Part shown: piece by piece, positions 28,906 through 52,617 of the stretch
Layout: every line of letters starts with the position of its first letter
How positions within the stretch are numbered: position 1 is the stretch's first letter
Position numbers and translations under genes: made by a program
Notes under the pieces: model-generated
The model's database searches: none
What the model was told of the DNA's origin: nothing
Seen by the model: the letters and a program-made list of their open reading frames with translations, nothing else
Assembly (NCBI GenBank): GCA_963812135.1
Contig: CAWETU010000001.1
Coordinates: 1,984,001 to 2,048,000 of the forward strand
Direction of reading: 5' to 3'
DNA length: 64,000 bases
Source of the DNA: Vulcanimicrobiota bacterium
GTDB lineage: Bacteria; Vulcanimicrobiota; Vulcanimicrobiia; Eremiobacterales; Eremiobacteraceae

Positions 28906-30291
28906 CTATCCCGGGGCAGCGAACGCGAGCGCTTGCCGCAGGCAATCGCTCACGCCCACGCCTGCGAGGTAGTTGCCCGCGAGGCGCAGCCCAGGAATCC
29001 GATCGACCGCCGTCCTGATCCGCTCGACCCGTCCGCGATGGCCGAGCGTGTATTGCGGGATCCCCTCGTTCCATCGAAATCCGGCCAGCACGTGCGGTCT
29101 GACATCGCTGATGCGCATGATTTTGGCCAGATCCGCGTGCGCGATGCGCGCGAGCTCTTCATCGCTGCATTCCGTGATACTCGGATCCAACGAACCGCCG
29201 AGAAACGCGGTGCAGAGCAGCTCGTCGCTTGGGGCACGATCGGGAAAGAGCACAGAGTTCCACACCGCGCCGAGCACACGTACGCCTTCACCGCGGCATG
29301 CCAAGAAGCCGAATCCGTCGAGCGGCGCGGCGACGTTCGCCTTCAGGTATGTGAGCGCGACCTGCGCAATGGGCGCATACTCGATCTCGCGCAATGCCCT
29401 CGCCGCTTCGGGCTCTATCGGTTCCAACAACGCTGCAGCTGATGGGGCGCTGGTCGCGATGATGACCTGCGCCGCGTCGATCTTGCCTTCTGGCAGCCCT
29501 TGGCACTCGAGCGTAAAGCCGGCGCCGCGCTGATCGATGCGCGTCACGCGAGCATTCTCATAGGCGTGACCAAAGAGACTATGGGCGAGCGCCTCGAGCA
29601 GGGTTGCGTTGCCGCCTGCGAAACTGACCGGGCCCCTCGGTCGGCCTAAGTCGACCGCATTGGGTCGATTCGAATCGACCGCTACATTCCTCTTGCGTGC
29701 GAGGACGCCGCGCAGAACGCTGCCGTTTTCCGTTTCGAACCGCACGAGCGCCGGCATCGTGCTGCGAGCCGACAGCTTTGCAGGGTCGCCCGCGTAGATG
29801 CCTCCCAGCACCGGGGTGACCAGCGCATCCAGGACTTCGGGCCCGGCCCGACGTCCGACGAACGAGGCGACGGTTTCGTCTGCAGCGTCGGTGCGCGCGC
29901 GCACGAACGCCTCCCCGAAAAGCCGCCATTTGGCGCCGGCCGAAAGCAGTCGGCTCGAGATGAATTGGGCTGGAGAGGCCGGCACTAGGATAAGCGCGCC
30001 GTGGCGGTAGATGTAACGCTTCGCCCCTTCGGTTTTCCCTTGGACAAGTTGTCCTTCAACTCCGAGATCGCGGCATAGCTCGATCAACTGTGGTGACGGC
30101 AGCAAGCTTTGCGGACCGCGATCGACCAGGTACGGTCCCTGGCGAAGCGAGCCCATAACCCCGCCGAAGCCGGAGGATGCCTCGAGCACGACGGCATTGT
30201 GGCCCGTCTTGCGCAGTGCGTACGCCGCAGTCAGTCCGGAGATGCCGCCGCCGATAACTGCGACGTCGACGTTCTCGAACGCGCCGCTCAT
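28906..30291 (-). CDS. hemY: HemY-type (copro/proto)porphyrinogen oxidase
   Basis: GGGISGL FAD motif, GIYAGDP, GFGFL, IPQY, GNYLAGVGVSDC. Confidence 0.92.
   Translation of the reverse strand: MSGAFENVDVAVIGGGISGLTAAYALRKTGHNAVVLEASSGFGGVMGSLRQGPYLVDRGPQSLLPSPQLIELCRDLGVEGQLVQGKTEGAKRYIYRHGALILVPASPAQFISSRLLSAGAKWRLFGEAFVRARTDAADETVASFVGRRAGPEVLDALVTPVLGGIYAGDPAKLSARSTMPALVRFETENGSVLRGVLARKRNVAVDSNRPNAVDLGRPRGPVSFAGGNATLLEALAHSLFGHAYENARVTRIDQRGAGFTLECQGLPEGKIDAAQVIIATSAPSAAALLEPIEPEAARALREIEYAPIAQVALTYLKANVAAPLDGFGFLACRGEGVRVLGAVWNSVLFPDRAPSDELLCTAFLGGSLDPSITECSDEELARIAHADLAKIMRISDVRPHVLAGFRWNEGIPQYTLGHRGRVERIRTAVDRIPGLRLAGNYLAGVGVSDCLRQALAFAAPG
29639..29685 (-). repeat. REP copy (29663-29685) plus a degenerate tandem copy, inside hemY
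   Basis: GTAGCGGTCGATTCGAATCGACC then ATGCGGTCGACTTAGGCCGACC; translated VAVDSNRP-NAVDLGRP. Confidence 0.8.
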
Positions 30292-31271
30292 GTCGTCGTG
30301 ACGCCGCGCGCGAGCTCGGCTTGATTGGCGAGGCACGCGATGAACGACGGATGGCATTGCACCGTCGGAGCGCGTCCGAATTCGGTGATGCCCGCAGCCG
30401 TCGCGGCGTCGGCGTATTGGATATCGATCTCGTTGAGCGTCTCGACATGTTCGCTCACGAACGCGATCGGCACGATACAGATCGCGCGCGCGCCGTCGGC
30501 CGCCAGCTTCCCGATCAGCAGCTCCGTGGCAGGCTCGAGCCATTTCTCGGGACCGAGGCGGCTCTGGAACGACAGATGCGTCGGACCCGGATGCGCGAGC
30601 CTGCCGACGGCTGCCGCCATCGTCTTCTTCACCTGGTCGAGATACGGATCGCCGCGCTCGATGTAGCGCATCGGCAGCCCGTGCGCCGAGAAGATCAGAT
30701 GCACGCCTTGCGCGGGCGCCCTGAAGCTGTCGAGGGTGCGCCGCGTGACGTCGACGAGCGCCGCGATATAGTCGGGGTCCTCGCAGTACTGCTCGACGAC
30801 GCGCAATTCAGGTTCGTAACCAATCTCGCGCATGACGCGCCTGAGCTCATTCAAGCTCGAGCGCGTGGTGGAATACGAGTACTGAGGATACAGCGGCAGA
30901 AAGACGAGCTCTTTGACGCCGTCGGCCTGCGCGGCACGCAGCGCGTCTTTGGAGTACGGCTGCCAATTGCGCATCGCCAGGTACACCGGCATCGGCCGGC
31001 CTCGCCGACCCAGCTCATCGCGCAAGGCTTGCGCTTGCGCCTCGCTTTGCGCGCGCAACGGCGAGCCGCCGCCGATGGAGGCGTACAGCCGGCGCGAGTA
31101 CGGCGCGCGCAGCGTGGAGATCGCCCATGCGGTCGGTTTGATCAGCGGCTTCGGAACGGGGATGTTGTCCGGGATGAGATCGACGAAGAAATTATAGAGA
31201 AACGGTCTGACGTCGGCCAGCGTCTCCGGCCCGCCGAGCTGCGCAAGGACGACGCCGGTGGCGTCAGCCAT
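30288..31271 (-). CDS. hemH: Ferrochelatase
   Basis: LGGP, IGGGSPL, PLYPQYS, FSAHGLP, FQSRLGP.KWLEP, FVSEHVETL.EID. Confidence 0.95.
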   Translation of the reverse strand: MADATGVVLAQLGGPETLADVRPFLYNFFVDLIPDNIPVPKPLIKPTAWAISTLRAPYSRRLYASIGGGSPLRAQSEAQAQALRDELGRRGRPMPVYLAMRNWQPYSKDALRAAQADGVKELVFLPLYPQYSYSTTRSSLNELRRVMREIGYEPELRVVEQYCEDPDYIAALVDVTRRTLDSFRAPAQGVHLIFSAHGLPMRYIERGDPYLDQVKKTMAAAVGRLAHPGPTHLSFQSRLGPEKWLEPATELLIGKLAADGARAICIVPIAFVSEHVETLNEIDIQYADAATAAGITEFGRAPTVQCHPSFIACLANQAELARGVTTT

Positions 31272-32286
31272 GGGACTTCGGGGCTTCGACGAATGCCGCC
31301 GCGCACTCGATCGGCGTTTGCGGCAAGATCCCATGACCGAGATTGAGGATGTGGCCCACCGGCCCGGCAGCTTCCATCGCCGCAAACGCAGCCTCGGCGA
31401 CGCGCACCGGCGTGCTCAGCAAAATCGCGGGGTCTACGTTTCCCTGGAGGGCGACCGCGCCGCCGGCCATCGCGCGCGCGTCCGACAGGTCGATGCGCCA
31501 GTCGACGCTGAGCACGTCCGCGCCACTTCGCGCCATCGTCTCGAGCACGCCGGCGCAACCGTTGACGTAGAGGATAGCGGGCACGCCGGCCGCGCGAACG
31601 CGCTCGATGACGCGGGCCTGATACGGAAGTGCGAACTCCTCGAACGCTCGCGGTTCGAGCTCGCCCGCCCACGTATCGAACACCTGGATGGCTTGCGCAC
31701 CCGCGCCCACCTGGGCCGCCGCGTAGGCTGCCGTCGTCGCCGCCAGTTTGTCGAGCAGCGCGTGGAACGTCTGCGGCTGCGAGTACATCAGCGTCTTGGT
31801 GGCTGCGAAGTTCTTCGAACCTCCGCCTTCTATTATATAGGAGGCTAGCGTGAAGGGTGCCCCCGTGAAGCCGACCAGCGCGGCGCGGTCGAGCAGCGCT
31901 CGCTTGCACAGCCGCAACGCTTCCATGACGAAGGGTGTGGCGGCCAGCGGGTCGGGGACCCGGAGGCGCTCGACGTCGTCGCGATTATGGATCCGCCGCT
32001 CGAGCTGCGGTCCGGCGTCGCCGAACGCTACGGGGATGCCCATCGCCTCGACGGGGACCAGGATGTCGGAGAACACGATGCACGCGTCCATGCCGAAGCG
32101 CTCGATCGGCTGGAGCGACACCTGCGCGGCCAGCTCGGGCGTCTTGCACAGCGTGAGGAAATCGACGCGTTCGCGCACTGCGCGATACTCCGGCAGATAG
32201 CGCCCCGCTTGGCGCATCATCCAGACCGGCGTGCGATCGACCGGCTGGCGTGCACACGCGGCGAGGAATCGTTCAGGCGCGTTCAT
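31264..32286 (-). CDS. hemE: Uroporphyrinogen decarboxylase
   Basis: PVWMMRQAGRYLPEYR, FSDIL, QGNVDP, NLGHG. Confidence 0.96.
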   Translation of the reverse strand: MNAPERFLAACARQPVDRTPVWMMRQAGRYLPEYRAVRERVDFLTLCKTPELAAQVSLQPIERFGMDACIVFSDILVPVEAMGIPVAFGDAGPQLERRIHNRDDVERLRVPDPLAATPFVMEALRLCKRALLDRAALVGFTGAPFTLASYIIEGGGSKNFAATKTLMYSQPQTFHALLDKLAATTAAYAAAQVGAGAQAIQVFDTWAGELEPRAFEEFALPYQARVIERVRAAGVPAILYVNGCAGVLETMARSGADVLSVDWRIDLSDARAMAGGAVALQGNVDPAILLSTPVRVAEAAFAAMEAAGPVGHILNLGHGILPQTPIECAAAFVEAPKSHG

Positions 32287-32303
32287 CGGTCGACGTATTT
32301 GAC

Positions 32304-32322
32304 GGGCGAGTAAACTCGACCG

Positions 32323-32326
<4 letters not shown>
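32304..32326 (-). repeat. REP copy overlapping the metK stop codon
   Basis: AA-GTAG-CGGTCGAGTTTACTCGCCC; the TAG within GTAG is the stop. Confidence 0.8.
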
Positions 32327-33567
<1,241 letters not shown>

Positions 33568-33576
33568 TGCTTTGAT

Positions 33577-34932
<1,356 letters not shown>

Positions 34933-34960
34933 CTATGCCCGAGGGCTCGACATGGGGCGG

Positions 34961-35611
34961 ATGGAATGGCCGCTTGTGACGCTTTCGACACAACCGATCG
35001 ACGCATACGCCCGCGCGCTCGAATCGGCCGATCCCACGCCGGGCGGCGGCAGCGCGAGCGCGGTCGTCGGCGCATTGGGCGCGAGTCTCGCCGCGATGGT
35101 AGCGCGACTCACCGCTGCTTCGCCAAAATTCGCCTCCGCGGCGCCGCGCATGGAAACGATCGCGCACGAAGCGACGCAACTGCTCGACGCGATGCTCTGG
35201 GCGATCGACGCCGACGTCAAAGAGTTCGATCGCGTGAGCGCGGCATACAAGATGCCTAAATCGACCGAGCCTGAGAAGACGGCACGCACCGCTGCGATTC
35301 AGGGCGCACTCATCGGCGCCACCGATGCGCCCATGAAAGTCGTCGAGCTTGGCCTGAAGCTCGCGCGCGTGGCGGTCGAGTTGGTGGACGCGGGCAACCC
35401 GAACGCGATCAGCGACGCCGGTTGCGCGGCGCTCTTCGCCCAGACCGCCGCGCGCGGCGCGTCGCTCAACGTGCGCATCAACATCAAGGCGCTGCACAAC
35501 GCGGAGCTTGCGCGCGAGTATCAGACCAAGCTCGACGATTTGCTCGCCCAGATCGGTTTCCTGACGGAAGTCGCGATCGTCAAGGTCGAGCGCGCGACGC
35601 GGCTGGCCTGA
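34961..35611 (+). CDS. Cyclodeaminase/cyclohydrolase (FTCD C-terminal domain family)
   Basis: PTPGGGSASA, GNPNAISD, LNVRIN; start uncertain (34961 or 34976). Confidence 0.88.
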   Translation: MEWPLVTLSTQPIDAYARALESADPTPGGGSASAVVGALGASLAAMVARLTAASPKFASAAPRMETIAHEATQLLDAMLWAIDADVKEFDRVSAAYKMPKSTEPEKTARTAAIQGALIGATDAPMKVVELGLKLARVAVELVDAGNPNAISDAGCAALFAQTAARGASLNVRINIKALHNAELAREYQTKLDDLLAQIGFLTEVAIVKVERATRLA

Positions 35612-35615
35612 ACCG

Positions 35616-36470
35616 ATGGCAGGAGCGCGCGTCCTCGAAGGACGGCCGATCGCCAACCGGATCCGCGACGACGTCTTCGAGCGCGCCAAAGCGCTGCGCG
35701 AGGTCGCGATCGTGCCGCACTGCAGCACCTTCGTCGGTGAAGGCGACAAGGAAGGCGCGTTTTACGCCGAGAGCTTGCGCAAAGTGGGCACGCGGCTCGG
35801 CGTCGAGGTCTCGGTGCACACCATGTCGCTCGCCGACGGCACGCGCGGTTTCGTCAACGCGATCAGCGAGGCGGCCCGCAATCACAAAGTGCACGGTATC
35901 ATCGTTCAGCGGCCGCTGCCGCCCTCGCTCGACCTGTATGACATCAACACCGCCATCCCGGTCGAGAAAGACGTGGATTGCGCGAGCCCGCTCTCGCTCG
36001 GTTGGCTCGCGCAGGGTATGCCGCATTTTGCGCCCGCGACCGCGGCAGCTGTCATCGAGATGCTGCGCGAGCCGGGGTTGATTCCAATCGCGGGAACGCG
36101 CACGGTCGTCATCGGCCGTTCGCCGGTCGTCGGCCGGCCGGTCGCGTACATGTTGACGTCCGCCGACGCGACGGTGACGCTGTGCCATTCGAAAACGAAG
36201 GATCTCGACTCGATCTGCCGCAGCGCCGAGATCCTCGTCGCCGCCATCGGCAAGCCGCGACTCGTCGATGCGAAGATGATCAAGCGCGGCGCTGTCGTCG
36301 TCGACGTCGGCACGAATCTCGTCGACGGCCAAGTCGTGGGCGACGTCGATTTCGAGTCTGTGTCGCAGCTCGCCGGCGCAGTCACTCCGGTGCCTGGCGG
36401 GGTGGGTGTGGTCACGACGTCGATCTTGCTGCGCAACGTCGTCGCGGCGGCCGAACACGGCACCATCTGA
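35616..36470 (+). CDS. folD: Methylene-THF dehydrogenase/cyclohydrolase
   Basis: HGIIVQRPLP, KDVD, GRS..VGRP, TPVPGGVG. Confidence 0.93.
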   Translation: MAGARVLEGRPIANRIRDDVFERAKALREVAIVPHCSTFVGEGDKEGAFYAESLRKVGTRLGVEVSVHTMSLADGTRGFVNAISEAARNHKVHGIIVQRPLPPSLDLYDINTAIPVEKDVDCASPLSLGWLAQGMPHFAPATAAAVIEMLREPGLIPIAGTRTVVIGRSPVVGRPVAYMLTSADATVTLCHSKTKDLDSICRSAEILVAAIGKPRLVDAKMIKRGAVVVDVGTNLVDGQVVGDVDFESVSQLAGAVTPVPGGVGVVTTSILLRNVVAAAEHGTI

Positions 36471-36573
36471 CGGGACAAGGGTTTCGCCTTCACGGCCGAC
36501 AACTTCGCAGCGTGCTCGACGCAGTCACGCATCGGCCGGCGCTGCGCATCCGGATGCGCGCGAGGCCGACGCG

Positions 36574-37149
36574 ATGAGCGCTCGCGGGGCGGGCTCGACT
36601 ATCCCACCTGTGCCGGAGCAGATCGCATTCGTCGAGGACGCGATGGCGAAGTTCGGGCGTCAGACGTACAACTACGCCTATCGCCTGACCAACAACGAAG
36701 CGGACGCCCGCGACCTCACTCAAGAAGCATTCATCCGCGTGTTCAAAGCCTGGCAATCGTTCCGGCCAGGCACGTCGTTTCTCGCGTGGATCTATCGCAT
36801 CGTCACCAACCTCTACCGCGACGAGCTGCGCAGGCGCAAAGGCGTCTTCGCGCAACCGCTGCCCGACGACAACCAAGCCCACGAGCAGTCCGCGCCGCGC
36901 CACGATCCGATCGAGACGATGCACGAGCAACAGCTCTCGGCGGGCATGGAGCGCGCGCTCGGCGGGCTCACGCCCGAGCAGCGCGCGGTGATCTTGCTCG
37001 CTGACGTCGAGGAACGCTCGTATCAGGAAATCGCCGATGTGATCGGCTGCTCGATCGGCACCGTGCGCTCGCGACTGCATCGCGCGCGTGCTCAATTGCG
37101 CCGGTTGCTTGAAAAAGAACGAGCGGCTCGGAGCGCTCAGCCATCATGA
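36574..37149 (+). CDS. ECF sigma-70 factor (RpoE-like)
   Basis: ARDLTQEAF, AWIYRI, SYQEIA, GTVRSRLHRAR; start uncertain. Confidence 0.9.
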   Translation: MSARGAGSTIPPVPEQIAFVEDAMAKFGRQTYNYAYRLTNNEADARDLTQEAFIRVFKAWQSFRPGTSFLAWIYRIVTNLYRDELRRRKGVFAQPLPDDNQAHEQSAPRHDPIETMHEQQLSAGMERALGGLTPEQRAVILLADVEERSYQEIADVIGCSIGTVRSRLHRARAQLRRLLEKERAARSAQPS

Positions 37150-37297
37150 CCCGCATTGCGGTACGGTTTGGGCCTGTTTCGCGCCACGGGAACGCTTGGC
37201 ATTCCACGCTCGTTGATAAAGATGAGGGAGTTTGCGCCACGGCGCGACCCCCCGCTTTTGACGCGCATCCCGCTCGACCCGAGGAATCAACCGACTG

Positions 37298-37786
37298 ATG
37301 AACTGCAACGACTGCCGCCCACTGCTCACCGACTACGCGCATCACGAGCTTGATGCCGCGCAAGACGCGCTTGTCTTCGAGCATCTGCAGACGTGCCAGC
37401 AGTGCCGCGCGGCTTGGCAGGCGGAACTGGATCTGACCGAGTCGATCCGTTACGCGTACTCGGAAGAGCGCGATCTTCCGATGTCAGTGGTGGCCGGCGT
37501 CCGCATGTCCATGCGCGGCGCCAAAGGCGCGACGTTCTTGGACCGCGTGCGCGCCGCGCTGCGGCCGGCCGTTCTTGCGCCCGCCGCTGTCGTGGTGCTC
37601 ATCGTCGCCGGCGCGCTGCGCTATGGGCCGATGGCACTGCATCCGACGTCGTCGCAACTGTCTTCATCGTACTTCGTCCGCCAGCACGTCGCGCAGACGC
37701 TTGGCTCTCCCTCAAGCGATCGCAGCTGGTCGGCGTACGTGCTGACCTCGGAGAACGCCAAGAGCGGGCAGACCGGTGCGCCTTAG
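37298..37786 (+). CDS. Zinc-binding (zf-HC2) membrane anti-sigma factor
   Basis: HLQTCQQC motif plus one TM; SD GAGG. Confidence 0.85.
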   Translation: MNCNDCRPLLTDYAHHELDAAQDALVFEHLQTCQQCRAAWQAELDLTESIRYAYSEERDLPMSVVAGVRMSMRGAKGATFLDRVRAALRPAVLAPAAVVVLIVAGALRYGPMALHPTSSQLSSSYFVRQHVAQTLGSPSSDRSWSAYVLTSENAKSGQTGAP

Positions 37787-38802
37787 CTCGTTCCTTTTTC
37801 GCGCTCGCCGCAGCCGCCGTCTTAGTAGCCGGCGCGCCGCGCGATGTCCGCGCGGCTTCCGACGGCTACACGCTGCTCAAAGAAGCGGTCATCGCGGACG
37901 ACCACGTGTCGTTCTCCGGCACCGTGACCTCTTTGATTTACGGCGGCAACGCGACGAGCGCGACCGTCGTGCACATCGAGCACAAAGCGCCCAACGACTG
38001 GCGTCTTTGGTATGTCGCGCCGGCGGACGCGTACGGCCGGCTCATCATCAGCAACGAGTCAGTCGCATATCAATACGAACCGTCGAAGGGCAAAGTCTTC
38101 AGCAACGATTGGGCGTCGCTCGCACCGTTCGCCGCTACGCTCGACATCGGGCGCATCAAGCGCAACTACGCGGTGCAGGCGTCCGATCACGCCGAGGTCG
38201 CCGGCCGCCCGGCACGCACGCTTTCTCTGGTGTCGACTTATTCGCACGCCCTCGTGCTGCGCATGTGGGTCGACAACGCGACCGGCGTCATCCTGCGGCG
38301 CGAGACCTATCACGGCGACGGCACGATCGCCACTCGGACCGAATTCGACAGCATCCGCTTCGTCAAAGATCTGCCGGACGATCTCTTCAAGATGACCGTG
38401 CCCGCGGGCATGACCTTGACGCCGGGCGCGGAGTACGGCGCTTCAACCCCAGCGATGGATACGCTGACCAGCGGGTTGCCATTTAAACCCGTGGGTCCGC
38501 GCGAGCTGCCCGACGGCTTCACCTTCGAGAAGGGCTCGACCGCGCAGCGCGGCGGCGTGCAGACGGTGCAGTTCGTGTATTCGGACGGTCTACGCAGTTT
38601 GTCGCTGTTCGAGAACGCGACCGGCCGCTATCCGACGTTCGACGATCCGGCTCCCAAGGCGCTCGCGGTCGGCAAGCAAGACGGCAAGTACACGCTCGTG
38701 GACGGTCAGACGCTGTTGACGTGGAACGCGGGCGGCTTGAACTTCATCATGGTCGGCGATTTGCCGCTCAAAGAACTCGCGCACATCGGCGCATCACTCT
38801 AA
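37776..38802 (+). CDS. MucB/RseB-like periplasmic sigma-E regulator (apparent +1 frameshift at 37795-37799)
   Basis: VAGRPA, WVDNATGVILR, LPDGF, YSDGLRSLSLFE. Removing one T restores the signal peptide MRLSSFLFALAAAAV. Confidence 0.8.
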
Positions 38803-39828: not shown

Positions 39829-39836
39829 CAGATTCC

Positions 39837-39859
39837 GGTCGAATAAATTCGACCGCTAC
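39837..39859 (-). repeat. REP copy immediately after the TPR gene stop
   Basis: TGA|GTAGCGGTCGAATTTATTCGACC. Confidence 0.9.
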
Positions 39860-42338: not shown

Positions 42339-42340
42339 GC

Positions 42341-43272: not shown

Positions 43273-43900
43273 ATGCTTACGCACACGTTTTCAAAACTAG
43301 GGCGCAATTTCATCGGTCTCGCTTGGGACGGCGAAGCGCTGTGGGCGGGCGACTGGGATTCGCAGACGCTCTTGCGCTTAGCCGCGAATGGCTCGGTTGG
43401 AGAATCGTATCCGGCGCCCGGCAGGCCGGTCGGCCTGTACGTTTCGCGAGGGCACGATCACGGCGGTGATCGGCAATCCTGAGACCGACGACCGGTCGAT
43501 CCATCAGTTTGACGCGTCGCGCCACGTGTGGTCGGACGAAAGTATCCGCTGTCCGGACGACACCGGATCTCACCTATCGTGGAGTGGAAGCAAGTTGTGG
43601 CTGAGTCAACGCTATAACAAGCGCGTTTTGCAGCTCGGCGCCGACGGCTCGGTGGAACGCACGATTGAGATGCCGAGTGAGGTCGTCGGAATCCATTGGA
43701 TGGGACCGACGTTGTGGACGAACTTGCGGATCAGTAAAGGCACGTCCGATATCGGACGACTGGAACCTAATGCGGAGAAACCCGAACTGGTCGATCACTA
43801 CGACCAGGGGTTCGTTTCGCTGGGCTATGACGGCGGTGGTTTTTGGATGAGCGATCTGCGCGGCACCACCATCGCGCGCGCGGTGCCGCCGGGTCTCTAG
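43273..43900 (+). pseudogene. Beta-propeller-like hypothetical protein with +1 frameshift near 43438
   Basis: GLAWDGEALW repeats continue in the other frame (LSWSGSKLW, GIHWMGPTLW, LGYDGGGFW). Confidence 0.7.
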
Positions 43901-43906
43901 CCGGCG

Positions 43907-44713
43907 TCATGCGTGGTTGACGAGCATCCCAAGCGCCTCGAGCTGGACGCCATCTGGTCCGCGAATGTCCGGCGATCGATAACGTGCGTGCAGAAGCGTC
44001 TCTCGCCACGCGCTGATAGCAGCGACCCGCTGGCCTTCTATATACAAAGCGTTTCCAAGGTAGAAATACACCTCTTGAAAATCCGGCTGCTCCGAGACGA
44101 TGGCGCGCAGACCATTGATCGCGCGTTGGAAGTCGCCAAGGCTGGCTTGGTGCAACGCGGCAAGAAGTCGTGGACTGGCTGCTTGAGCTGAATCGGAATT
44201 GAAGCCTACACCCCATTGAGGATTACGAACATTCGAATCGTAATATGCGGCGAATGCCGCGCGGTATTTGCCCTGGCGAAAGAGCGGATCACCATCGGGG
44301 TTGCTCGTGTCGCGATGCGGCAGGCCATCCGTGGCGAAATGATCCCACGTCTCGCGCCACAAATGCCGCGCCTCGTCTACATCGCCAACCTCGTAGAGAT
44401 CGTCGCTTAGGTGGAAGATGAGGTCCGTGTAGGTGCGATAGCGTTCTGGAGAGTTCGTCGGCAGCAGATGCAGTGCAGTCCGAGCCTCGGCGATCGCGTT
44501 GCGAAGGTCGCCGTAGCGCTCATAGCACAGGGCCATCACCTCGTGCCCATACGGCTGACCGATTGCGGGATCGACGATCATCGGCGGCGGCGTGCAAGGG
44601 ATGCGCGGCGGTGGCGGTTCGGTTGCTGAACGCGCGTCCTTGCTAAAAACGACAAGAACCGAGAGTGCCGCCAGCCCCGCGAGGCACAAACGGGCAGTCG
44701 ATGCGCGCTGCAC
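43907..44713 (-). CDS. Secreted TPR-like hypothetical protein
   Basis: Signal peptide, PDF.EVYFYLGNALY TPR-like segment. Confidence 0.6.
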   Translation of the reverse strand: MQRASTARLCLAGLAALSVLVVFSKDARSATEPPPPRIPCTPPPMIVDPAIGQPYGHEVMALCYERYGDLRNAIAEARTALHLLPTNSPERYRTYTDLIFHLSDDLYEVGDVDEARHLWRETWDHFATDGLPHRDTSNPDGDPLFRQGKYRAAFAAYYDSNVRNPQWGVGFNSDSAQAASPRLLAALHQASLGDFQRAINGLRAIVSEQPDFQEVYFYLGNALYIEGQRVAAISAWRETLLHARYRSPDIRGPDGVQLEALGMLVNHA

Positions 44714-44719
44714 CCGTGC

Positions 44720-45667
44720 CTACTGAGCGGCCGGAGGCCTGGTCACAACCGTCAGGAAGTTCTTGATCGCGGCGTTGAGCGCGCCTGGCTGGTCGAGCAT
44801 GATGAAATGCTTCGAGTTGGCGATCGTCTCTACGGTGACGGTCTTGGCGCCCGCGTATTGCGACGCATAGTAGTCGTGGATGGTGGCGGCCAGTTGAGCG
44901 GGAGTCAACCCGCGCAGCTGGTTATTCATGTAGGGGGCGTCCGCCGACACGGGCGCAATGACGAGTAGCGGCGCGGTTATTTTATCGAGGCCAGGCCTCA
45001 GGTCCTCAAGCGACATCTCGGTTGTCGCGCCTGCGAGCGTCGTCCGATCGCTGCGTAATGAATGATCGGCGACGATCTGCGCTTGCGTGGCGTCCGTGAC
45101 CATGGTCGCCGCGGTCGAGCGCGTTTGGTTCTCGTACAACCAATCGGGTGCGGATGCAATCCCATCCGCGAGTTGCGAGACGTTCTGCGCCCGCTGTTGT
45201 AGAGTCTGTCCGGGCTGCAGCGGCGGGAAGTATGGCGTTTCGTCGACGATCACCGCGCCGGCAAACAGGTCGGGATGCTCTTCGAGCAACCGTAGCGCGA
45301 TATGGCCGCCGAGGCTGTGACCGACGAGCACGGGCGATTTGAGGTTCTCTTGGCGGATCAGGTTCATGATCGCCGCATCGGCCTGCTGGATGTAGGGCGG
45401 GGGCGACGGCGGCAGTCCGTCAAAACCGGCCATGTTACCGGCATAGATCGTGTGATCCGCGGACATCTCCGCGATGGTGCTCGACCACGTCCACGAATTC
45501 ACTGAGAGGCTAGGCAACATGATGATGGCGGGTTCGCCTTGGCCGTAGCGATCGAAATGCATGTTGCCGATAACAAAGCTTTTCGCCGGCGTCGGGATCG
45601 GCTGCGCGTTGGCGCGTGTGAGACCGGTGATCAAACAGAGCACGACGAACAGGGCGATACGAATCAT
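44720..45667 (-). CDS. Secreted alpha/beta hydrolase
   Basis: GHSLGG, SKHFIMLDQP. Confidence 0.85.
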   Translation of the reverse strand: MIRIALFVVLCLITGLTRANAQPIPTPAKSFVIGNMHFDRYGQGEPAIIMLPSLSVNSWTWSSTIAEMSADHTIYAGNMAGFDGLPPSPPPYIQQADAAIMNLIRQENLKSPVLVGHSLGGHIALRLLEEHPDLFAGAVIVDETPYFPPLQPGQTLQQRAQNVSQLADGIASAPDWLYENQTRSTAATMVTDATQAQIVADHSLRSDRTTLAGATTEMSLEDLRPGLDKITAPLLVIAPVSADAPYMNNQLRGLTPAQLAATIHDYYASQYAGAKTVTVETIANSKHFIMLDQPGALNAAIKNFLTVVTRPPAAQ

Positions 45668-45733
45668 ATGTGTCGTTTTGGCTTTTGCGCGTGGGGGTGC
45701 CTCTCGAACAGGGCCATGCCACTGCCACTTTGA

Positions 45734-46882
45734 ATGCAGCCCGCCATGAAGATCGCGGTCATCGGCGCGGGCATCAACGGTCTCTCATCTGCGTGGGGGC
45801 TCGCGCGCGATGGCCACGAGGTGAGCGTCTTCGAGCAAGGTCCGATCCCGAATCCGCTTGGTTCATCGTACGACCAGAACCGCCTCATCCGCTATCCGTA
45901 CGGCGCAAATCTTGGATACACGCGCTTGGTCGCCGCCGCATACGAGGCGTGGGATCGCCTGTGGTCCGATCTCGGAGAGACGTTCTACGTCCGCACGGGC
46001 ACGCTGGCGATCGCGCGCGACGAGACCAGTTGGACCGATCAATCCGCCCAGACGTTGACGCAAGCCGGCGTCGAAACGCGACGGCTCCCGCCGGCCGACA
46101 TCGAACGCATCTTCCCGATGCTACGCACCGAAGGCATCCGCTACGCGTTGTACCTGGAATCTGGCGGCGAATTGTTCCCGACGCGCATCATCGAGGCGCT
46201 GGCGCGCCACTTGCGCAAACTCGGCGTGAGTATCTCAGAGAACACGCCGGTGAAATCCATCGATGTCGAGCGGGCGCGTGCAGTCCTATACGATGGATCC
46301 GTAGTCGACGTGGACGCGCTGGTCGTGGCCGCAGGGCCATGGGTGGCGCGCCTGCTGCCTGAGATGGCGAGCCGCGTCACGCCGTCGCGCCAAGTGCTCG
46401 CGTATGCAGAACCCCCGCGACAATATGCAGAGCATTGGAAGCATGGACCGATGCTCATGGACCTTGACGGCGCTGGATTCTATCTCGTGCCTCCCGCGGG
46501 CGGCACGGATCTGAAGGTCGGCGACCATCGCTTTAGCCTGACCGGGCAACCCGACGCCGATCGCGATCCGTCACCGGCTGAAACGCAGGCGGTGTTCGAG
46601 CAGGCGCGACGCGTGCTGCGCGATTTTGATCAATATAAGATCAAAGCGACGCGGACGTGCTTTTACACGGTCGAGTCCGGGGAGCGCTTTCTGGTCGAAC
46701 GCCAAGGGCGTTCGTGGCTGGTCAGTGCGTGCTCGGGCCACGGGTTCAAGTTCGGTGCGCTGACTGGGCTCGCCGTCGCCGACGGCATCGCTGGTAGACG
46801 TTCCGCCGACGAGATCGCGCGCACGTCCGCCGGAGAGAGTCCCGGGGTCACGATCCCAGGGCGCCATTCGGAGATCGCATGA
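45734..46882 (+). CDS. FAD-dependent oxidoreductase (sarcosine oxidase/SolA-like)
   Basis: VIGAGING, CFYT, CSGHGFKF. Confidence 0.87.
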   Translation: MQPAMKIAVIGAGINGLSSAWGLARDGHEVSVFEQGPIPNPLGSSYDQNRLIRYPYGANLGYTRLVAAAYEAWDRLWSDLGETFYVRTGTLAIARDETSWTDQSAQTLTQAGVETRRLPPADIERIFPMLRTEGIRYALYLESGGELFPTRIIEALARHLRKLGVSISENTPVKSIDVERARAVLYDGSVVDVDALVVAAGPWVARLLPEMASRVTPSRQVLAYAEPPRQYAEHWKHGPMLMDLDGAGFYLVPPAGGTDLKVGDHRFSLTGQPDADRDPSPAETQAVFEQARRVLRDFDQYKIKATRTCFYTVESGERFLVERQGRSWLVSACSGHGFKFGALTGLAVADGIAGRRSADEIARTSAGESPGVTIPGRHSEIA

Positions 46883-47961
46883 CGGTTCTCGAGTGGGTTG
46901 AGGTGGCGGCCGGCATCGCACTTGTCTGCCTCATGCTCTATGATATTTTCGCCTCGGTTGTTGTGCCCAGAGCGGTGTCGGCGACGTTCCGCACGAGCGT
47001 TCTCGTCGTGCGGGGCTCGTGGCGGCTCTGGCGCGACTACGCGGTCACGATCAAAGACGCCGACAAGCGCGAGGACTTCCTCGGACGCTTCGCGCCGGGC
47101 GTCTTGATCGGATTGCTGATCGTATGGCTCAGCGGCCTGTTGCTCGGATATGGCTTGATCTTCTATGGGCTCCGCGGCCACACCCAACCGCCGCTGCACT
47201 CATACATCGATGCGGTGTATTTCGCCGGGACCTCGCTGCTGACGATCGGCTACGGCGACATCGTCGCCACCGATACGATCGCCCGTCTCTTCACGCTCGC
47301 CGCCGGCGCCACGGGGCTCGCGCTGTTCGCGCTGACCATCTCGTTCATCTTCTCAATCTTCGGATCGTTTCAGAATCGCGAGGTCTTCATCGTCATGATG
47401 GGCGGTCGCGCCGGTGCGCCGCCCTCGGGCGTGACACTGCTCGAGACCGTTTCGAAATACAAAATCTTTGAGGATTTCGCGCAGAGCATGCGCGAGGGCG
47501 AACGCTGGGCGGCGTCGGTGCTCGAGTCACATCTCGCCTATCCGGTGCTCGCGTATTTCCGCTCGAGCCACGATGACGAGTCGTGGATCGGTACGCTCGG
47601 CGCCTTGCTCGACGCGTCGACCATGCTCATCACGCTGACCGACAGTCCGCTCGTCGGGCGCGCGAAACTGCTGCACCTTATCGGCGTGCATCTCGTGCGC
47701 GACCTCACCCGCTATTTCCGCGTTGCTGTGATCGAGACGGCGGGCATCGAGCGTGGCGAATTCGACCAAGCGTGTGCTCAATTGACCGCGGCGGGCTGGG
47801 AAGTGCGATGCGACGACGCGGCATGGAAGAGCTTTTCAGAGTTGCGCATGCAGTACGCCGGCCCGCTCAACGAAATGGCGAAGTTCTGGATGACACCGCC
47901 GTCGCGCTGGATCGGGGATCGCTCGGAGATCGGCAAGCGCATGATGCACGCGGCTTCGTAG
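46879..47961 (+). CDS. Potassium-channel (ion transport 2) domain protein
   Basis: TIGYGD selectivity-filter motif; HLAYPVLAYFRS. Confidence 0.85.
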   Translation: MTVLEWVEVAAGIALVCLMLYDIFASVVVPRAVSATFRTSVLVVRGSWRLWRDYAVTIKDADKREDFLGRFAPGVLIGLLIVWLSGLLLGYGLIFYGLRGHTQPPLHSYIDAVYFAGTSLLTIGYGDIVATDTIARLFTLAAGATGLALFALTISFIFSIFGSFQNREVFIVMMGGRAGAPPSGVTLLETVSKYKIFEDFAQSMREGERWAASVLESHLAYPVLAYFRSSHDDESWIGTLGALLDASTMLITLTDSPLVGRAKLLHLIGVHLVRDLTRYFRVAVIETAGIERGEFDQACAQLTAAGWEVRCDDAAWKSFSELRMQYAGPLNEMAKFWMTPPSRWIGDRSEIGKRMMHAAS

Positions 47962-48032
47962 GGCAAACCGGCGGGCACCCTGAAGTCTGACACCTCACGG
48001 GGCATCACTCATCCCACATCGGAGTTTCACTC

Positions 48033-48638
48033 ATGCACGTACGTTTTGTCGCGGCGTTGTCGGCGGTCGCCCTCATTTCGGCATTGGCATGCCTGCCCGC
48101 ACCGGCCGCAGCCGACACCACATGGGCAGCCGATCCGGGCCATTCCCTGGCCGAATTCAGCGTGCTCCATCTAGGCGTCACGCATGTGCGCGGCTCAATC
48201 CTTATCAGCCAAGCGAGCGTCGTCACGCCGAGCGGCACTAATGTGCCGTCCTCGATCGTCGCGGCACTCGACCCCGCGAGCATCGATACGCGCAATTCGG
48301 ATCGCGATAACGATCTGCGAGGCCCTGATTGGCTCGATGTCACGCGCTTCAAGACGATGTCGTTCAAGAGCGCGTCAGTGACTGCGGGGCCGAACGACAC
48401 ATTCACCGCGGCTGGCGATTTGACGATTCATGGCGTGACTAAACCCGTGACGCTCGCGGGCCATATCGACGGCACGACCGTTGACGGCAGGGGACATAAT
48501 CGCGTGTCGTACTCAGCGACGACGACGATCAAGCGTCAGGACTTCGGTTTGAGCTGGGCGCAGCAGACGCCGGGCGGCACGTTCGTCGCGGGCGACAACG
48601 TGGACATCTCGATCACCATCGAAGCCGTCGCCCGCTAA
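48033..48638 (+). CDS. YceI family protein
   Basis: Signal peptide, DPGHS, SIDT.N.DRD..LR, GDLTIHGVTKPV. Confidence 0.92.
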   Translation: MHVRFVAALSAVALISALACLPAPAAADTTWAADPGHSLAEFSVLHLGVTHVRGSILISQASVVTPSGTNVPSSIVAALDPASIDTRNSDRDNDLRGPDWLDVTRFKTMSFKSASVTAGPNDTFTAAGDLTIHGVTKPVTLAGHIDGTTVDGRGHNRVSYSATTTIKRQDFGLSWAQQTPGGTFVAGDNVDISITIEAVAR

Positions 48639-48692
48639 GCGGTGTGTCGAGGGATTAAAACCTGCGAGGGCAAACGGAAACATCGTCATCGT

Positions 48693-48994
48693 GGGATGAT
48701 GGTGAAATCGGAAGACACAACGGACTTCCAATTGGAGCCGGGGGCCGGGAAACCACCTCTGGGATGCGCTCAAAGTCGGTGAACTCTCTGCTCGAAAGAG
48801 CGTGACAACGCCGAGCCAAGCTCCCGAGACGGAGAAGGTGTAGAGACTGGACGGGCGCGACCTACGGCGTGATAGACGCTACGGTCAAGGCACAGTCCGG
48901 ACCACACAAATGCCGTCAGGCAGTGGCGAAAGCCATAGTGGTGCGAAAATCCGTTGCCCGCAAGGGCGTCCGGGTTCGAGTCCCGGTCATCCCA
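48693..48994 (+). tRNA. tRNA-Leu(UAA), intron-containing (exons 48693-48727 and 48946-48994)
   Basis: Acceptor GGGATGA/TCATCCC-A; spliced anticodon arm ACGGA-CT-TAA-AA-TCCGT; long variable arm; GGTTCGAGTCC; no encoded CCA. Confidence 0.92.
48728..48945 (+). ncRNA. Group I intron (218 nt, no ORF)
   Basis: U at the 5' splice site and terminal G; P3 GCGCTC/GGGCGC; R element GGTGTAGAGACTGGACGG; S element AAGGCACAGTCC; GAAA-capped helices. Confidence 0.9.
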
Positions 48995-49924
48995 TGTTGA
49001 TCTTCTCGCGTAGATAGCCGATCAGTAGGTCGGCTTCGCTGACCAGAGTTGACCGCTTTTGTAGCGGCGCGCGATCTCGTCGAGGATGATAAGCCCGGCC
49101 GGCATGATGTCGGCCCGGAACTCCGGCAATCCATGCAACTGTTTGCGCTGTTCGATCGGCAACGACACCGTCAGCCGAAAAAGATCCTCCAGATCCGCGC
49201 GACGCAACGCTGCGACGTGCACGTCGGAGGCGGCATCGTACGCGTTTAGCATGCGCGCCGCGGTGTCAGCGGTTCCGCCGACAAAGACGAGCTGAGCGTC
49301 CGAGCTTCGCTCGGGTTCTACATCAAACTCAAGCCTTACGGCGGTGCGGCACGCGCTAATCTCTTCCGCCGTCGGCGGATCGTGCTTGAAGAAGCGTTCG
49401 GTCATGCCCACCGCGCCAACCGGCAACGAGCTCACCAGAACGTCGTTGTTCGGGGTGGTTCTGGTCGCGATCTCAGTGCTGCCGCCCCCGATATCGACGA
49501 CCGTGAGCGGTCCGAGCGGCGCGTGACCGGTCTGCTCGAGCGCCCAGCACGCGCCGTCGAACGACGCGCGGGCTTCTTCTTCTCCCGTGAGGATGTGCAG
49601 CTCTGTTCCGGTGATCGCGTGGACCTGCTCGGCGAACTCAGCTGCATTGGTCGCCTCGCGAAGCGCGGCCGTGCCGATGACAAAGCGGCGATCGGCGCGC
49701 CTTGCCAGCCCGGCGAATTCCGCGATGGCGGCGGCGGTCCGCTCCATCGCCTGAGGCGCGAGCAGCTTCGACGCGCTGACGCCTTCACCCAACCGAGTGC
49801 CGCGAATCGCGTGATGTTCGACCGTGATCGGTCGAATAAATTCGACCGCTACATTCTTTTCTGGGACTTGGGCGATCAAGAGCCTGCACGAGTTGCTGCC
49901 GGCGGCGATCACGGCGCAGCGCAT
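48987..49924 (-). CDS. Ppx/GppA family phosphatase (apparent -1 frameshift near 49045)
   Basis: GSNSCRL, TRLGEG, TAALREATN, EEEA, DIGGGSTE, GGTA, RADI; restored end VSEADLLIGYLREKINMG*. Confidence 0.85.
49830..49852 (-). repeat. REP copy inside the Ppx/GppA gene
   Basis: Exact GTAGCGGTCGAATTTATTCGACC, translated VAVEFIRP. Confidence 0.9.
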
Positions 49925-49927
49925 GGC

Positions 49928-50374
49928 TCAGCGCTTCTTTCGCGGCGGTTTCTTCGGCGACTCCCGGTACTGCCGGCGCGCGCGCATCTCAAACGGAAGC
50001 AGCCGGTCGGCGCGCGGCTCTTTCGCCTCGTGCGCGCGGCTAGCGATGGCGCCCTTGGGATCCCAGTCTTCGGTCTGGCGCAGATAGTCGATGATCTTCT
50101 CGTCCAAGTTGGAGTCGTCGGCAGGCCGGACTTCCGAAGCAGGCGCGGCTTGTTCAGGTTGCTCGGTCAGCGCCCCGTCAGCCAGGCGCAGCGTCAGCCA
50201 ACCATCCTTCTCGGAAACGATAAACGGCAGGTTTGGCCGGCGCTTGCGCGACGCGGCACGACGAACATCGCCGTGACCGGGTTCCGACGAGGGAAGATTC
50301 GCGATGCGGCCGTCATCGAGACGCACAACGCAGCCGTAGCGTCCGCACGACAGAACCGTTCCGTTGATCTGCAC
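49928..50374 (-). CDS. Hypothetical protein with degenerate S1/OB-fold-like N-terminus
   Basis: GTVLS..RYGCVVRL.DG; located next to a divIC-like gene. Confidence 0.55.
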   Translation of the reverse strand: MQINGTVLSCGRYGCVVRLDDGRIANLPSSEPGHGDVRRAASRKRRPNLPFIVSEKDGWLTLRLADGALTEQPEQAAPASEVRPADDSNLDEKIIDYLRQTEDWDPKGAIASRAHEAKEPRADRLLPFEMRARRQYRESPKKPPRKKR

Positions 50375-50676
50375 TAGGGAGATGCTGGGGCCGGCGTCGC
50401 GATCTGAATGAAGACTTCGTGCGGCTTCGTGAGACCCAGCTGCTCGTGGATGAGCGGCACGAGGTACTCGGGATCGCGCGACAGGATGATGTCGCGGCGC
50501 AGCTTGACCGAGCTCGCGCTCAGCTGCTGGTTCTGATCCTCGACCGCATCGATCTGTTTGTGCAGCTGATAGTTCTGGTAGCCGACCCGCCAGGCTTGGC
50601 CCGTGAACGACGCGACGACCAGCAGCACCGCGGCCAATCCGACCAAACGGCCGGCGGTCGACATCACGCGCATCAT
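50374..50676 (-). CDS. Septum formation initiator (DivIC/FtsB-like)
   Basis: TM plus coiled coil plus DPEYL....EQLGL.KP.EV; start uncertain. Confidence 0.75.
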   Translation of the reverse strand: MMRVMSTAGRLVGLAAVLLVVASFTGQAWRVGYQNYQLHKQIDAVEDQNQQLSASSVKLRRDIILSRDPEYLVPLIHEQLGLTKPHEVFIQIATPAPASP

Positions 50677-50749
50677 CGTGCGCTCGCGCTTCTTGCGGGC
50701 GGCGCCGCCGAGCGGCTTGTTCGCCAGCCGGCTGATCTTGAAACCGAGG

Positions 50750-51724
50750 CTACCGCGCCGCACGGTCCAGCGCCATCTCTTCGTGCGCACCGATTTTGCG
50801 ATACTTCTCGTACCGCCGATCGATGAGTTGCTCGGGCGAGAGCTTGATGAGCTGCGCCAACGCTTGTTTGTCCGCCTCGAGCACCGAGTGTATCGTGGTC
50901 ACAGGGTCGCGATGCGCGCCGCCCATCGTCTCCATGACGACCGTGTCGACGATGCCGAATTCGAACAGATCTTCCGACGTCAGACGCAGACGTGACGCGG
51001 CTTCGTCGGCCTTGCCAGCGTCGCGCCACAGGATGGTCGCGGCGGCCTCAGGCGACGCGACCGAATACACCGCATGCTGCAGCATGAGGACGGTGTCGCC
51101 GACGCCGATCGCGAGCGCGCCGCCGCTGCCGCCTTCGCCGATCACGTTGACCACGATCGGCACGCCCAGTCCAGCCATCAACTTGATGTTCGTCGCGATC
51201 GCTTCTGACTGGCCGCGCTCCTCGGCGCCGATGCCCGGATAGGCGCCCGGCGTATCGATGAACGTGAGCAGCGGCTTGTGGAACTTCTGGGCGAGCCGCA
51301 TGATGCGCGCCGCCTTACGATACCCTTCCGGATGCGCCATGCCGAAACTGCGATACAGATTCTCTTTCGTATCGCGGCCCTTTTGCTGGCCGAGCACGAA
51401 CACGGGCACGCCATCCAAATACGCATAGCCGGCGACGAGCGCCGGATCGTCACGGAACGCGCGGTCGCCGTGCAGTTCGACGAAGCCGTCGAGCTTGCTG
51501 ATATAGTCCATCGCCAACGGCCGGCGCGGATGGCGCGCGAGATGCACGCGTTGCCATGGCGTGAGATTGCCGAAGATCTCGAGCTCGAGCGCAACCGCTT
51601 TTTCTTCGAGCGCTCTGATCTCGGCGGAGAAATCGACGCGCTGCGTCTCGTTGAGCTTCTTGAGCCCGTCGATCTTCGCTTCGAGCTCGAGCAGCGGCTT
51701 TTCCAGCTCGACGATGACGTTCAT
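50750..51724 (-). CDS. accA: Acetyl-CoA carboxylase carboxyltransferase alpha
   Basis: ARHPRRP, ELHGDR, PEGYRKA, IDTPGAYPG, GEGGSGGALA. Confidence 0.97.
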   Translation of the reverse strand: MNVIVELEKPLLELEAKIDGLKKLNETQRVDFSAEIRALEEKAVALELEIFGNLTPWQRVHLARHPRRPLAMDYISKLDGFVELHGDRAFRDDPALVAGYAYLDGVPVFVLGQQKGRDTKENLYRSFGMAHPEGYRKAARIMRLAQKFHKPLLTFIDTPGAYPGIGAEERGQSEAIATNIKLMAGLGVPIVVNVIGEGGSGGALAIGVGDTVLMLQHAVYSVASPEAAATILWRDAGKADEAASRLRLTSEDLFEFGIVDTVVMETMGGAHRDPVTTIHSVLEADKQALAQLIKLSPEQLIDRRYEKYRKIGAHEEMALDRAAR

Positions 51725-52617
51725 GAAGCTTTCGATTTCGGGCGGCGGATTGCCGGAGTCGGTCGACTGAAGTCGACCGCTACAGGGGTGGTGAAAAAGC
51801 GCAGCGCGTTCGCGAGCGCGGCCTTCATGTCGGCGCGACGCACGACCATGTCAACCTGACCGTGTTCGAGCAAGAACTCGGCCGTCTGGAATCCGTCGGG
51901 CAGCTTCTGCCTGATGGTCTGATCGATGACGCGCCGTCCGGCGAAGCCGATCGCCGCGCCGCTCTCGGCGATGATCACATCTGCTTGGAAACCGAAGGAA
52001 GCCGAGACGCCGCCGGTCGTGGGATCGGTCAAGATCGTGATCAACGGGAGCCCGAGCGTGCCGAAGCGTTCGACCGCAGCGCTCGTCTTGGCGAGCTGCA
52101 TGAGGCCGATCATACCTTCTTCCATGCGCGCGCCGCCCGATGTCGTCACGATGACGCATGGCACGCGCCGGCGCGCGCACTCCTCGATGAGTAACGTGAC
52201 TTTCTCGCCGACGACCCCGCCCATAGTGCCGCCGCGGAAGTTGAAATCCATGACGCCGAGCCCGACCGGAATCTGCTCGACCGTGCAAAATCCGACGATG
52301 ATGGCTTCGAGCAATCCCGATTTGGCGCGATCGCGTTCGGTCTTCTCTGGATAGGTGGTGCGGTCGGACCATTGGAGCGGATCGCCGGTGACCAGATTCT
52401 CCGCGATCTCGTCAAAGTCGCCGTCGGCGAGCAACGCGATGCGGTCGAGCGCCGGCAGCCGGAAATTATGGCCGCATTTGGGGCAGACGCGCAACTTCGC
52501 CTCGAGGTCCTTGATGAAGAGGCGGTCGCCGCAGGATGGGCAGATCTCCCAGAGCTTGTCGTCGGAGGGTTGCGGTCGTGCGCCGCGCCGGCGTAGCCAA
52601 TTCGGTGTTGGCATCAT
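51721..52617 (-). CDS. accD: Acetyl-CoA carboxylase carboxyltransferase beta
   Basis: CPSC...CPKC zinc finger, GGTMG, SGGARMEEG, PTTGGVSAS, FQTAEFL. Confidence 0.96.
   Translation of the reverse strand: MMPTPNWLRRRGARPQPSDDKLWEICPSCGDRLFIKDLEAKLRVCPKCGHNFRLPALDRIALLADGDFDEIAENLVTGDPLQWSDRTTYPEKTERDRAKSGLLEAIIVGFCTVEQIPVGLGVMDFNFRGGTMGGVVGEKVTLLIEECARRRVPCVIVTTSGGARMEEGMIGLMQLAKTSAAVERFGTLGLPLITILTDPTTGGVSASFGFQADVIIAESGAAIGFAGRRVIDQTIRQKLPDGFQTAEFLLEHGQVDMVVRRADMKAALANALRFFTTPVAVDFSRPTPAIRRPKSKAS
51761..51783 (-). repeat. REP copy in the accD 3' end
   Basis: GTAGCGGTCGACTTCAGTCGACC, translated VAVDFSRP. Confidence 0.85.

Follow-up and report, generated by a model that had tools for sequence, protein, structure and literature searches.

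Short GTAG-tagged palindromes read as extra residues in housekeeping proteins of a soil bacterium, and comparative evidence for reuse of their sites

The stretch analysed here (C1:1984001-2048000 of genome G000; 64,000 nucleotides, hereafter the window) belongs to a soil bacterium with a genome of 2.79 Mb and 64% GC, whose relatives bear the database names Eremiobacterota and Eremiobacteraceae. It carries seven copies of a repetitive extragenic palindrome (REP), of which three lie in coding sequence, one gives metK its TAG stop and three are intergenic (Table 1). The coding copies, in hemY, ppx/gppA and accD, are all on the minus strand and in the sense direction, where the initial annotation had placed them; hemY itself is part of a hemE-hemH-hemY run, with URO-D and ferrochelatase as neighbours. 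The 23-mer of the ppx copy has the same letters as the intergenic copies at 23751, 23778 and 39837. A search of the window that allows up to 3 mismatches yields 10 matches, namely the 7 copies and 3 palindromic shadows, compared with 0.49 in shuffled sequence, and Rfam covariance models applied to the window at gathering scores return no REP family, only one tRNA. As far as can be read from the DNA, the REP is translated as eight extra amino acids inside housekeeping genes.

Table 1. REP copies in the window and the genes that carry them
Feature	Position	Strand	Basis
Tandem intergenic REP pair, 27-nt spacing, between the gene for a 773-aa protein and tRNA-Asn	23750..23800	-	
hemY, protoporphyrinogen oxidase family, 461 aa	28906..30291	-	Pfam PF01593; PDB 2IVD, E 5e-79
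Degenerate tandem REP copy in hemY, NAVDLGRP	29638..29661	-	8-codon duplication; lacking in the 92%-identical homolog P0124
REP copy in hemY, sense frame, VAVDSNRP	29662..29685	-	sequence; REP-like peptide among homologs
REP copy giving metK its TAG stop (32323-32325) via GTAG	32303..32326	-	
Intergenic consensus REP, directly past the stop of a TPR-protein gene	39836..39859	-	
ppx/gppA, Ppx-GppA phosphatase family, 300 aa	49022..49924	-	Pfam PF02541; start backed by orthologs
Native ppx stretch of 8 nt, an exact match to the REP's left arm and located 24 nt downstream of that REP	49817..49824	-	sequence
Consensus 24-nt REP in ppx, inserted at a codon boundary, VAVEFIRP, residues 26-33	49829..49852	-	
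accD, acetyl-CoA carboxylase beta, 297 aa, overlaps the accA start	51721..52614	-	Pfam; orthologs
REP copy in the C-terminal tail of AccD, VAVDFSRP	51760..51783	-	

The palindrome described in the initial annotation as 23 nt long is present, but the repeated unit has 24 nt: a GTAG tail, a hairpin of 8-9 bp with a loop of 2-4 nt, and a conserved final G. It is far above chance in the genome, as had been anticipated; a pattern search with a 6-nt spacer between the arms finds 110 exact, 59 one-mismatch and 50 two-mismatch occurrences, against 0, 0 and 0-3 in three shuffles, and a weight matrix at a score of at least 18 recovers 211 copies, against 0-1 in three hexamer shuffles. With 3 copies on small duplicate contigs and 1 in a contig overlap removed, 207 remain. 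Their tail is GTAG in 168 cases and GGAG in 16, and the preceding base is T in 138. Most clusters are single copies (162 of 182 in G000, where 3 clusters contain both orientations, and 120 of 135 in the sister genome G005, where 1 is inverted). Pattern matches number 141-166 in G001, G005 and G006, in all of which GGAG is the dominant tail; 3-6 in G002, G003 and G004, which hold decayed remnants; 40, of a variant type, in G015; and 0-3 in the other 24 of the 32 family genomes searched. Since a HemY and AccD tree places G001 outside a clade that combines (G000,(G005,G006)) with (G004,(G002,G003)), the REP family probably dates back to the ancestor of the genus, with decay in one branch.

Genes were called with a purpose-built hexamer model, and orthologs were sought in the available 2.36 of about 2.7 Mb of G005. 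Translated copies number 46 of the 207 (22%) and fall in 33 genes; a further 113 are intergenic, 38 span a stop codon and 10 sit no more than 30 codons from a called start, where coding status is uncertain; the ppx copy was assigned to the coding class by hand, the automatic start call being too late. The stop-spanning copies contribute TAG through the tail in 28 cases and a stop through the loop on the other strand in 9, and 1 overlaps a stop in another way, so that 37 genes, metK among them, end on a stop from the GTAG tail or the loop. Orthologs support 35 of the 46 coding copies. The coding copies employ all six registers, most often the antisense GRINSTAT (27), followed by the sense VAVEFIRP (7), the antisense VEQARPLQ type (5), SGRIYST (4), RSNKFDR (2) and ERSNSFDR (1); the two frames in which the consensus has a stop are used solely by variants without it. 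In G005, 37 of 152 copies are coding, in five registers. The idea of a single donated peptide of about eight residues is thus not supported, and the uniform strand and frame noted in the initial annotation hold for the window but for only 7 of the 46 coding copies genome-wide; the strand is shared in the window because REPs there are nearly all on the minus strand and the host genes likewise. The proposed proteome search for VAV[DE]xxRP does give an excess, the motif occurring 5 times in the called genes, or 6 times once Ppx is counted, where shuffles give 0.4.

REP density in genes is 0.047 of that outside them (86% of the DNA is coding), and coding copies are confined to variable loops, linkers and tails, which agrees with the suggestion that such regions tolerate REPs of this family when they invade genes. 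Host genes, named via their G005 orthologs, include those for ValRS, CysRS, CarB, FabH, SelB, KGD, an E2 subunit and PBP1c; in-frame inserts occupy surface or linker positions in Ppx (by the structural model), ValRS, CarB, CysRS, FabH, SelB and the KGD and E2 linkers. At C1 1750374-1750673 of G000, five copies with 39-nt spacing encode the Pro/Ala-rich linkers of an E2-E1 fused 2-oxoglutarate dehydrogenase in the VEQARPLQ frame, and the second linker of G005 and G006 uses copies in the GRINSTAP frame. A triple array at C1 2159925-2160027 was classed as intergenic owing to a frame break; because the G005 ortholog, an AddA-like helicase-nuclease (L108), is one open frame through a REP at this spot, the figure of 46 coding copies probably misses three. 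G005 also has coding REPs of its own, in ribosomal protein L4 (+11 aa, L153:10097-10777) and the error-prone polymerase DnaE2 (two copies, L149:6043-9372).

Ppx provides the clearest case of the expected indel. The loop between strands 2 and 3 measures 18 residues in this protein, as against 10-12 in 54 of the 60 homologs that could be parsed (of 81 examined); taking out the 8 REP codons brings back the usual length, so that the REP is a clean 8-residue insert; no target-site duplication, a trait of miniature inverted-repeat transposable elements, is found at the ppx junction. A contig from a relative, 91% identical, is without the 24 nt at the place of the REP; contigs of RNA libraries derive from relatives, and the single one across the ppx site has no REP. 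An AlphaFold model built from a 118-row alignment has a mean predicted local distance difference test score (pLDDT) of 95, falling to 62 for residues 21-30 within loop 20-33 (the single-sequence version reaches 33), and in this model the peptide is predicted to lie in a surface loop of an otherwise confident fold. The same loop of G005 Ppx holds a REP in another frame (SGRIHST), and that of G006 is empty, with 10 residues. The homolog P0004, 88% identical and available as protein only, has a 10-residue loop that ends in NVAV-EHH, which would fit collapse of a REP over the 8-nt direct repeat formed by 49841-49848 and 49817-49824. The C-terminus of Ppx (window 49022-49050) reads WSAKPTY instead of running on, as homologs do, into a conserved VSESDLL-like motif; an additional base at 49045-49046 in the contigs of one run suggests that the assembly is wrong by one base nearby.

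For HemY, the expectation of an indel relative to orthologs fails for the first copy, which does not lengthen the loop compared with REP-free relatives. A REP-like peptide occurs in 16 of the 120 HemY homologs listed; single-copy relatives have loops of 20-21 residues, the REP-free G004 has 20 and G002/G003 have 23, and the loop of the Myxococcus protoporphyrinogen oxidase is about as long as that of HemY. Because single-copy loops match REP-free lengths, the extra 8 residues here are due to the tandem duplication, and the first copy is, judging by the alignments, an old insertion common to sister species. G001 HemY carries an antisense copy in the same loop. The AccD tail has 30 residues here, 26 in G006 with a perfect GGAG copy, 23 in G002-G004 with decayed copies, 15 in G005 without a REP, and 14 in G011. 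The G005 accD gene itself has a probable one-base frameshift.

Comparison of 1695 ortholog pairs between G000 and G005 reveals 23 internal REP sites, 9 occupied in G000 only, 4 in G005 only, 6 in both in the same register and 4 in both in different registers (ValRS, CarB, CysRS and the KGD linker); Ppx, overlooked by the ortholog-pair script, is a fifth of the last kind. Over the 1250 variable segments between the proteomes, 0.08 coincidences of this type are expected against the 4 found (P=5e-7), and P is 0.009 if merely 100 loops are usable. With HemY included, six proteins or linkers thus present the same loop with a different frame or strand in sister species, and CarB shows three registers across four species. 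In-place flipping of the hairpin, considered as a source of the register changes, fits one pair only (CarB, G000 versus G001). ValRS of G002/G003 has no REP and is 7 residues shorter; for CysRS and FabH, the loops of REP-poor relatives are of equal length, so that the REP took the place of existing sequence, or else the loops themselves are copies that have decayed. Non-coding junctions behave similarly, being shared 36 times against 5.1 expected, 34 of them in the same orientation.

The copies at shared sites differ chiefly in the tail. Of 57 sites with one-to-one orthology, 42 differ at tail position 2, with T here and G in G005 in 39 of these, and the tail differs in 11 of 13 coding pairs; stem positions 5-7, 9-11, 18-20 and 22-24 differ at 0-4 of the 57. 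In 64 pairs before de-duplication, identity between G000 and G005 is 91% for the REP body, 39% for adjacent bases (ungapped, a low estimate) and 58% for fourfold sites. As GGAG dominates in G001, G005 and G006, it is GTAG that swept the old sites in this lineage, and GAV therefore turned into VAV. Independent point mutation at 39 sites without selection is implausible, and overwriting by newer copies is the simplest reading of the tail swap. Taken together, these observations make it probable, if not assured, that the intragenic copies belong to a GTAG/GGAG-tagged family that is old in the genus and that their sites were later overwritten.

The paired stem variants GATT/AATC and GACT/AGTC, cited in the initial annotation as compensatory changes, are indeed present in the window copies, and paired double changes exceed independence both in coding copies (25 against 5.7 expected) and elsewhere (50 against 7.9). 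What does not hold is that they mark conservation of the hairpin in genes. The ratio of paired to unpaired changes is 25 to 26 in coding copies and 50 to 69 elsewhere (Fisher p=0.41), and because the rate is alike inside and outside genes the changes are no sign of in-gene selection. They are explained by variants circulating as sub-families or by template switching, which homogenises the arms of inverted repeats without selection (PMC8604942; this and the other sources cited were accessible in part, and statements on them refer to those parts). The inner variant of AccD type occurs in G001 and G005 copies as well. In HemY homologs, residues 4 and 6 of the peptide covary as the 12:17 base pair would require (D-S 9, D-N 2, E-T 3; 2 exceptions).

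A RAYT-type enzyme presumably built the REP family of G000. TnpA(REP) binds and cuts single-stranded REP DNA through the GTAG guide (PMC8266576), and RAYT genes of family members, as well as metagenome loci L247-L250, are flanked by inverted clusters of 25-28 nt sister hairpins that share the tail and outer stem with the present REP and have longer loops. Separately, a clade of RAYTs of about 150 aa was noted in the family (L078, L080, L082, L083, L084, L088, L090 and L091); every one of them has a GTAG/GGAG hairpin of its own on its flanks, in inverted clusters, and they lie at different chromosomal sites. A RAYT/TnpA(REP) HUH nuclease, now lost here or acting in trans, would have cleaved REP DNA in single-stranded form, joined it again and inserted copies, mostly behind a T. 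The 8-codon unit with its four open registers would keep the frame intact, and purifying selection would have cleared copies from structured regions, hence the REP density in coding DNA of about 5% of that elsewhere. A site with a resident REP would be revisited, to be overwritten by newer variants, duplicated in tandem or collapsed over short repeats, and for this reason the loop peptide would be replaced while its position is kept. The REP peptides would then be near-neutral by-products without a functional motif.

Several observations weigh against this scenario. The proposed search for a RAYT/TnpA(REP) gene in G000, which is 98% complete, came back empty with Pfam, a family protein, a family profile and tblastn alike; no cognate RAYT was found in G005, G006 or G002, the RAYT of G001 is flanked by another hairpin, and the exact 24-mer is found at none of 80 metagenome RAYT loci, among the matches listed. 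Similarity between orthologous copies is a little higher than in shuffled pairs (21.26 versus 20.84 of 24), so that their identity is partly plain inheritance. The REP-derived peptide of HemY is kept across homologs that are 63-92% identical, which could reflect domestication. The gene calls rest on the purpose-built hexamer model, with 11 of the 46 coding copies lacking an ortholog check, and the half-chromosome strand polarity described below is unaccounted for by the model.

Among the alternatives to overwriting, the least improbable, though still unlikely, is that REPs insert independently into the few dozen loops able to take an insert, whether or not a REP is already there, in bursts of variants particular to each lineage. 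It is compatible with the loops of CysRS, FabH and CarB being long or variable in REP-poor relatives already, with the failure of hairpin flips to produce most register pairs, so that separate events are needed, and with the empty Ppx loop of G006 next to the filled one of its sister G005. However, the number of variable segments makes the observed overlap improbable even with 100 usable loops, and non-coding sites are also shared above chance and show the tail swap. A slightly lower probability is assigned to the hairpins being functional cis elements, bound by a protein or acting as mRNA structure and selected even within genes, with the tail sweep and the paired changes tracking, one copy after another, a shift in the specificity of a host binding protein. 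Such a role would explain why REP bodies are much more conserved than neutral sites, the excess of paired changes in coding copies, the base-pair-like covariation in 14 of 16 HemY proteins and the presence of near-perfect copies without a detectable RAYT, and the strand polarity suggests some role at chromosome level. But pairing is kept no better in coding copies than elsewhere, paired variants circulate as sub-variants of the family, template switching needs no selection, G002, G003 and G004 hold just 3-6 copies plus decayed remnants, and the majority of coding copies are antisense to the mRNA.

Much less credible is an element akin to Rickettsia palindromic elements (RPEs) that donates a single conserved peptide, VAV[DE]xxRP, always in the same frame and with a function of its own. 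All three coding copies of the window are in that frame, the motif is in excess in the proteome, and HemY keeps it in 16 homologs; yet few of the coding copies use this register, orthologous loops hold unrelated peptides of other frames, and the first residues are lineage-specific, being GAV or GAA in sister species, so that this reading is already largely refuted. An artefact of assembly or base calling at palindromes has next to no likelihood. There are low-quality poly-C tracts at C1 1345195-1345390 and 2312218-2312465 and probable single-base errors, but a contig of another run, possibly of the source sample, matches 49812-49993, starting 17 bases left of the REP, with one difference, homologs from other sources have the same inserts, several assemblies are concordant, and the tail variants suit the reading frames that hold them.

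Between C1 0.993 Mb and about 2.39 Mb of the circular chromosome, 99 of 108 REP clusters lie on one strand, compared with 39 of 78 elsewhere. This domain comprises 1.40 of 2.73 Mb, is centred opposite dnaA/parS, includes the window and ends at about 20 kb on C5; none of 200 permutations matches the polarity. The collinear genome of G005 shows the same pattern (46:1 on C3, 47:2 on C4 and 35:21 on C2), and the copies of G001 are of mixed strand among the matches listed (100 of 141). Replichores were considered and rejected as the cause, given dnaA/parS at C1 308-315 kb and a switch of gene, tRNA and hexamer polarity at about 1.5-1.7 Mb that the REPs do not follow; transcription was ruled out by the independence of REP strand from gene strand; and a poly-C strand excess in the polar segment comes down to two low-quality spots, with no global bias. 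The genes of the right boundary (29 G005 proteins) include no relaxase or similar clue. The RAYT of G001, which maps to an empty site at about C1 1.001 Mb, close to the polarity boundary, was dismissed as a coincidence, being of another REP family. A more specific proposal, which can be held only tentatively, is that the single-copy REP acts as a homing editor of loops that re-targets REP-holding sites, loops of essential enzymes among them, replaces the resident copy in a new frame or strand, changes many proteins in sweeps, and has spread strand-specifically in this lineage across the terminus-centred half of the chromosome irrespective of the replichore switch. As side observations, the single rRNA operon is situated at the right boundary of the domain (start of C5), and C1 2.20-2.37 Mb, downstream of this operon, has lower GC and strong local GC and AT skew, the sign of which is the reverse of what gene orientation would predict; G005 mirrors this.

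With its unpaired 5' tail, a size and stem length inside the 20-40 nt and 6-13 bp typical of the class, a short loop, and dispersed, mostly non-genic copies, the element is a GTAG-tagged REP whose cognate RAYT is unproven, and is neither a REPIN nor an RPE of the long type. Its closest precedent is not the RPE, as the initial annotation had it, but the intragenic GTAG REPs catalogued by Di Nocera, De Gregorio and Rocco in 2013 (PMC3733652), in the accessible part of which REPs within genes contribute 7-8 residues in several frames and donate TAG stops, Opitutus terrae has at least 70 rows, REPtrons may be missing, and different REPs occupy approximately the same recB site in two Xanthomonas species. 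The two systems share the GTAG tail, the short stem-loop, in-frame copies, TAG donation and sub-families with complementary stems. More than half of the catalogued REPs are in dimers or groups, unlike the mostly single copies described here, which also represent a new sequence family in a new phylum; register changes between orthologs, the sweep of a tail variant and half-chromosome polarity go beyond what that source, as far as available, describes. The hairpin resembles the group 3 REP/TnpA(REP) system of S. maltophilia in being near-perfect, about 23 nt long and equipped with a GTAG guide (PMC3116915, PMC8266576, bioRxiv 10.1101/279083). Inverted REP clusters at RAYT genes, seen in family members, are shared with REPIN-RAYT systems; the near absence of inverted doublets, the form taken by most copies of a REPIN, the dominance of GGAG in sister species and the lack of a detected RAYT in G000 set the present REP apart. 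Extragenic REPINs of Pseudomonas chlororaphis at conserved positions 'may be overwritten' according to the accessible text of REPORTH (bioRxiv 10.1101/2024.10.14.618302); there, too, positions are fixed and the repeat sequence varies between genomes, although these are extragenic doublets of different types, unlike single copies of one family that are also translated and change frame and strand. RPEs are likewise palindromes that extend the reading frames of unrelated housekeeping genes, at surface positions of the proteins, but as first reported they have about 150 bp and a conserved peptide (PMC10969869), against 24 nt and six peptides here.

A literature search, with subscription papers mostly outside its reach, retrieved no paper on repetitive extragenic palindromes of Eremiobacterota and nothing closer on in-protein overwriting, concerted evolution of REPs or strand bias. 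Translation of REPs within genes is published and ordinary on its own, and the added value here is the comparative evidence for site reuse. No REP transposition product is reported in the accessible parts of the literature on REP spread, and coding copies are useful witnesses because a conserved flanking protein fixes the junction to the codon, unlike intergenic DNA; they display filled, empty, collapsed, duplicated and re-registered states of one site. If overwriting is true, core enzymes would time and again receive loop sequence from a selfish repeat, and adaptation need not be invoked for parallel amino-acid changes in REP loops. If homing is also true, sweeps of variants would alter amino acids in dozens of unrelated proteins together.

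Two further features of the window do not concern the REPs. At 1591-1684, ARAGORN predicts a 94-nt tRNA-Cys(GCA) that has no Rfam match at the gathering score, and a normal tRNA-Cys is present elsewhere in the genome. At 13747-14401, a 300-nt part of a DUF1254/DUF1214 gene is doubled at a spacing of 355 nt with 92% identity, splitting the 5' part of the gene over two frames; the cause is a genuine partial duplication or a mistake in the assembly.

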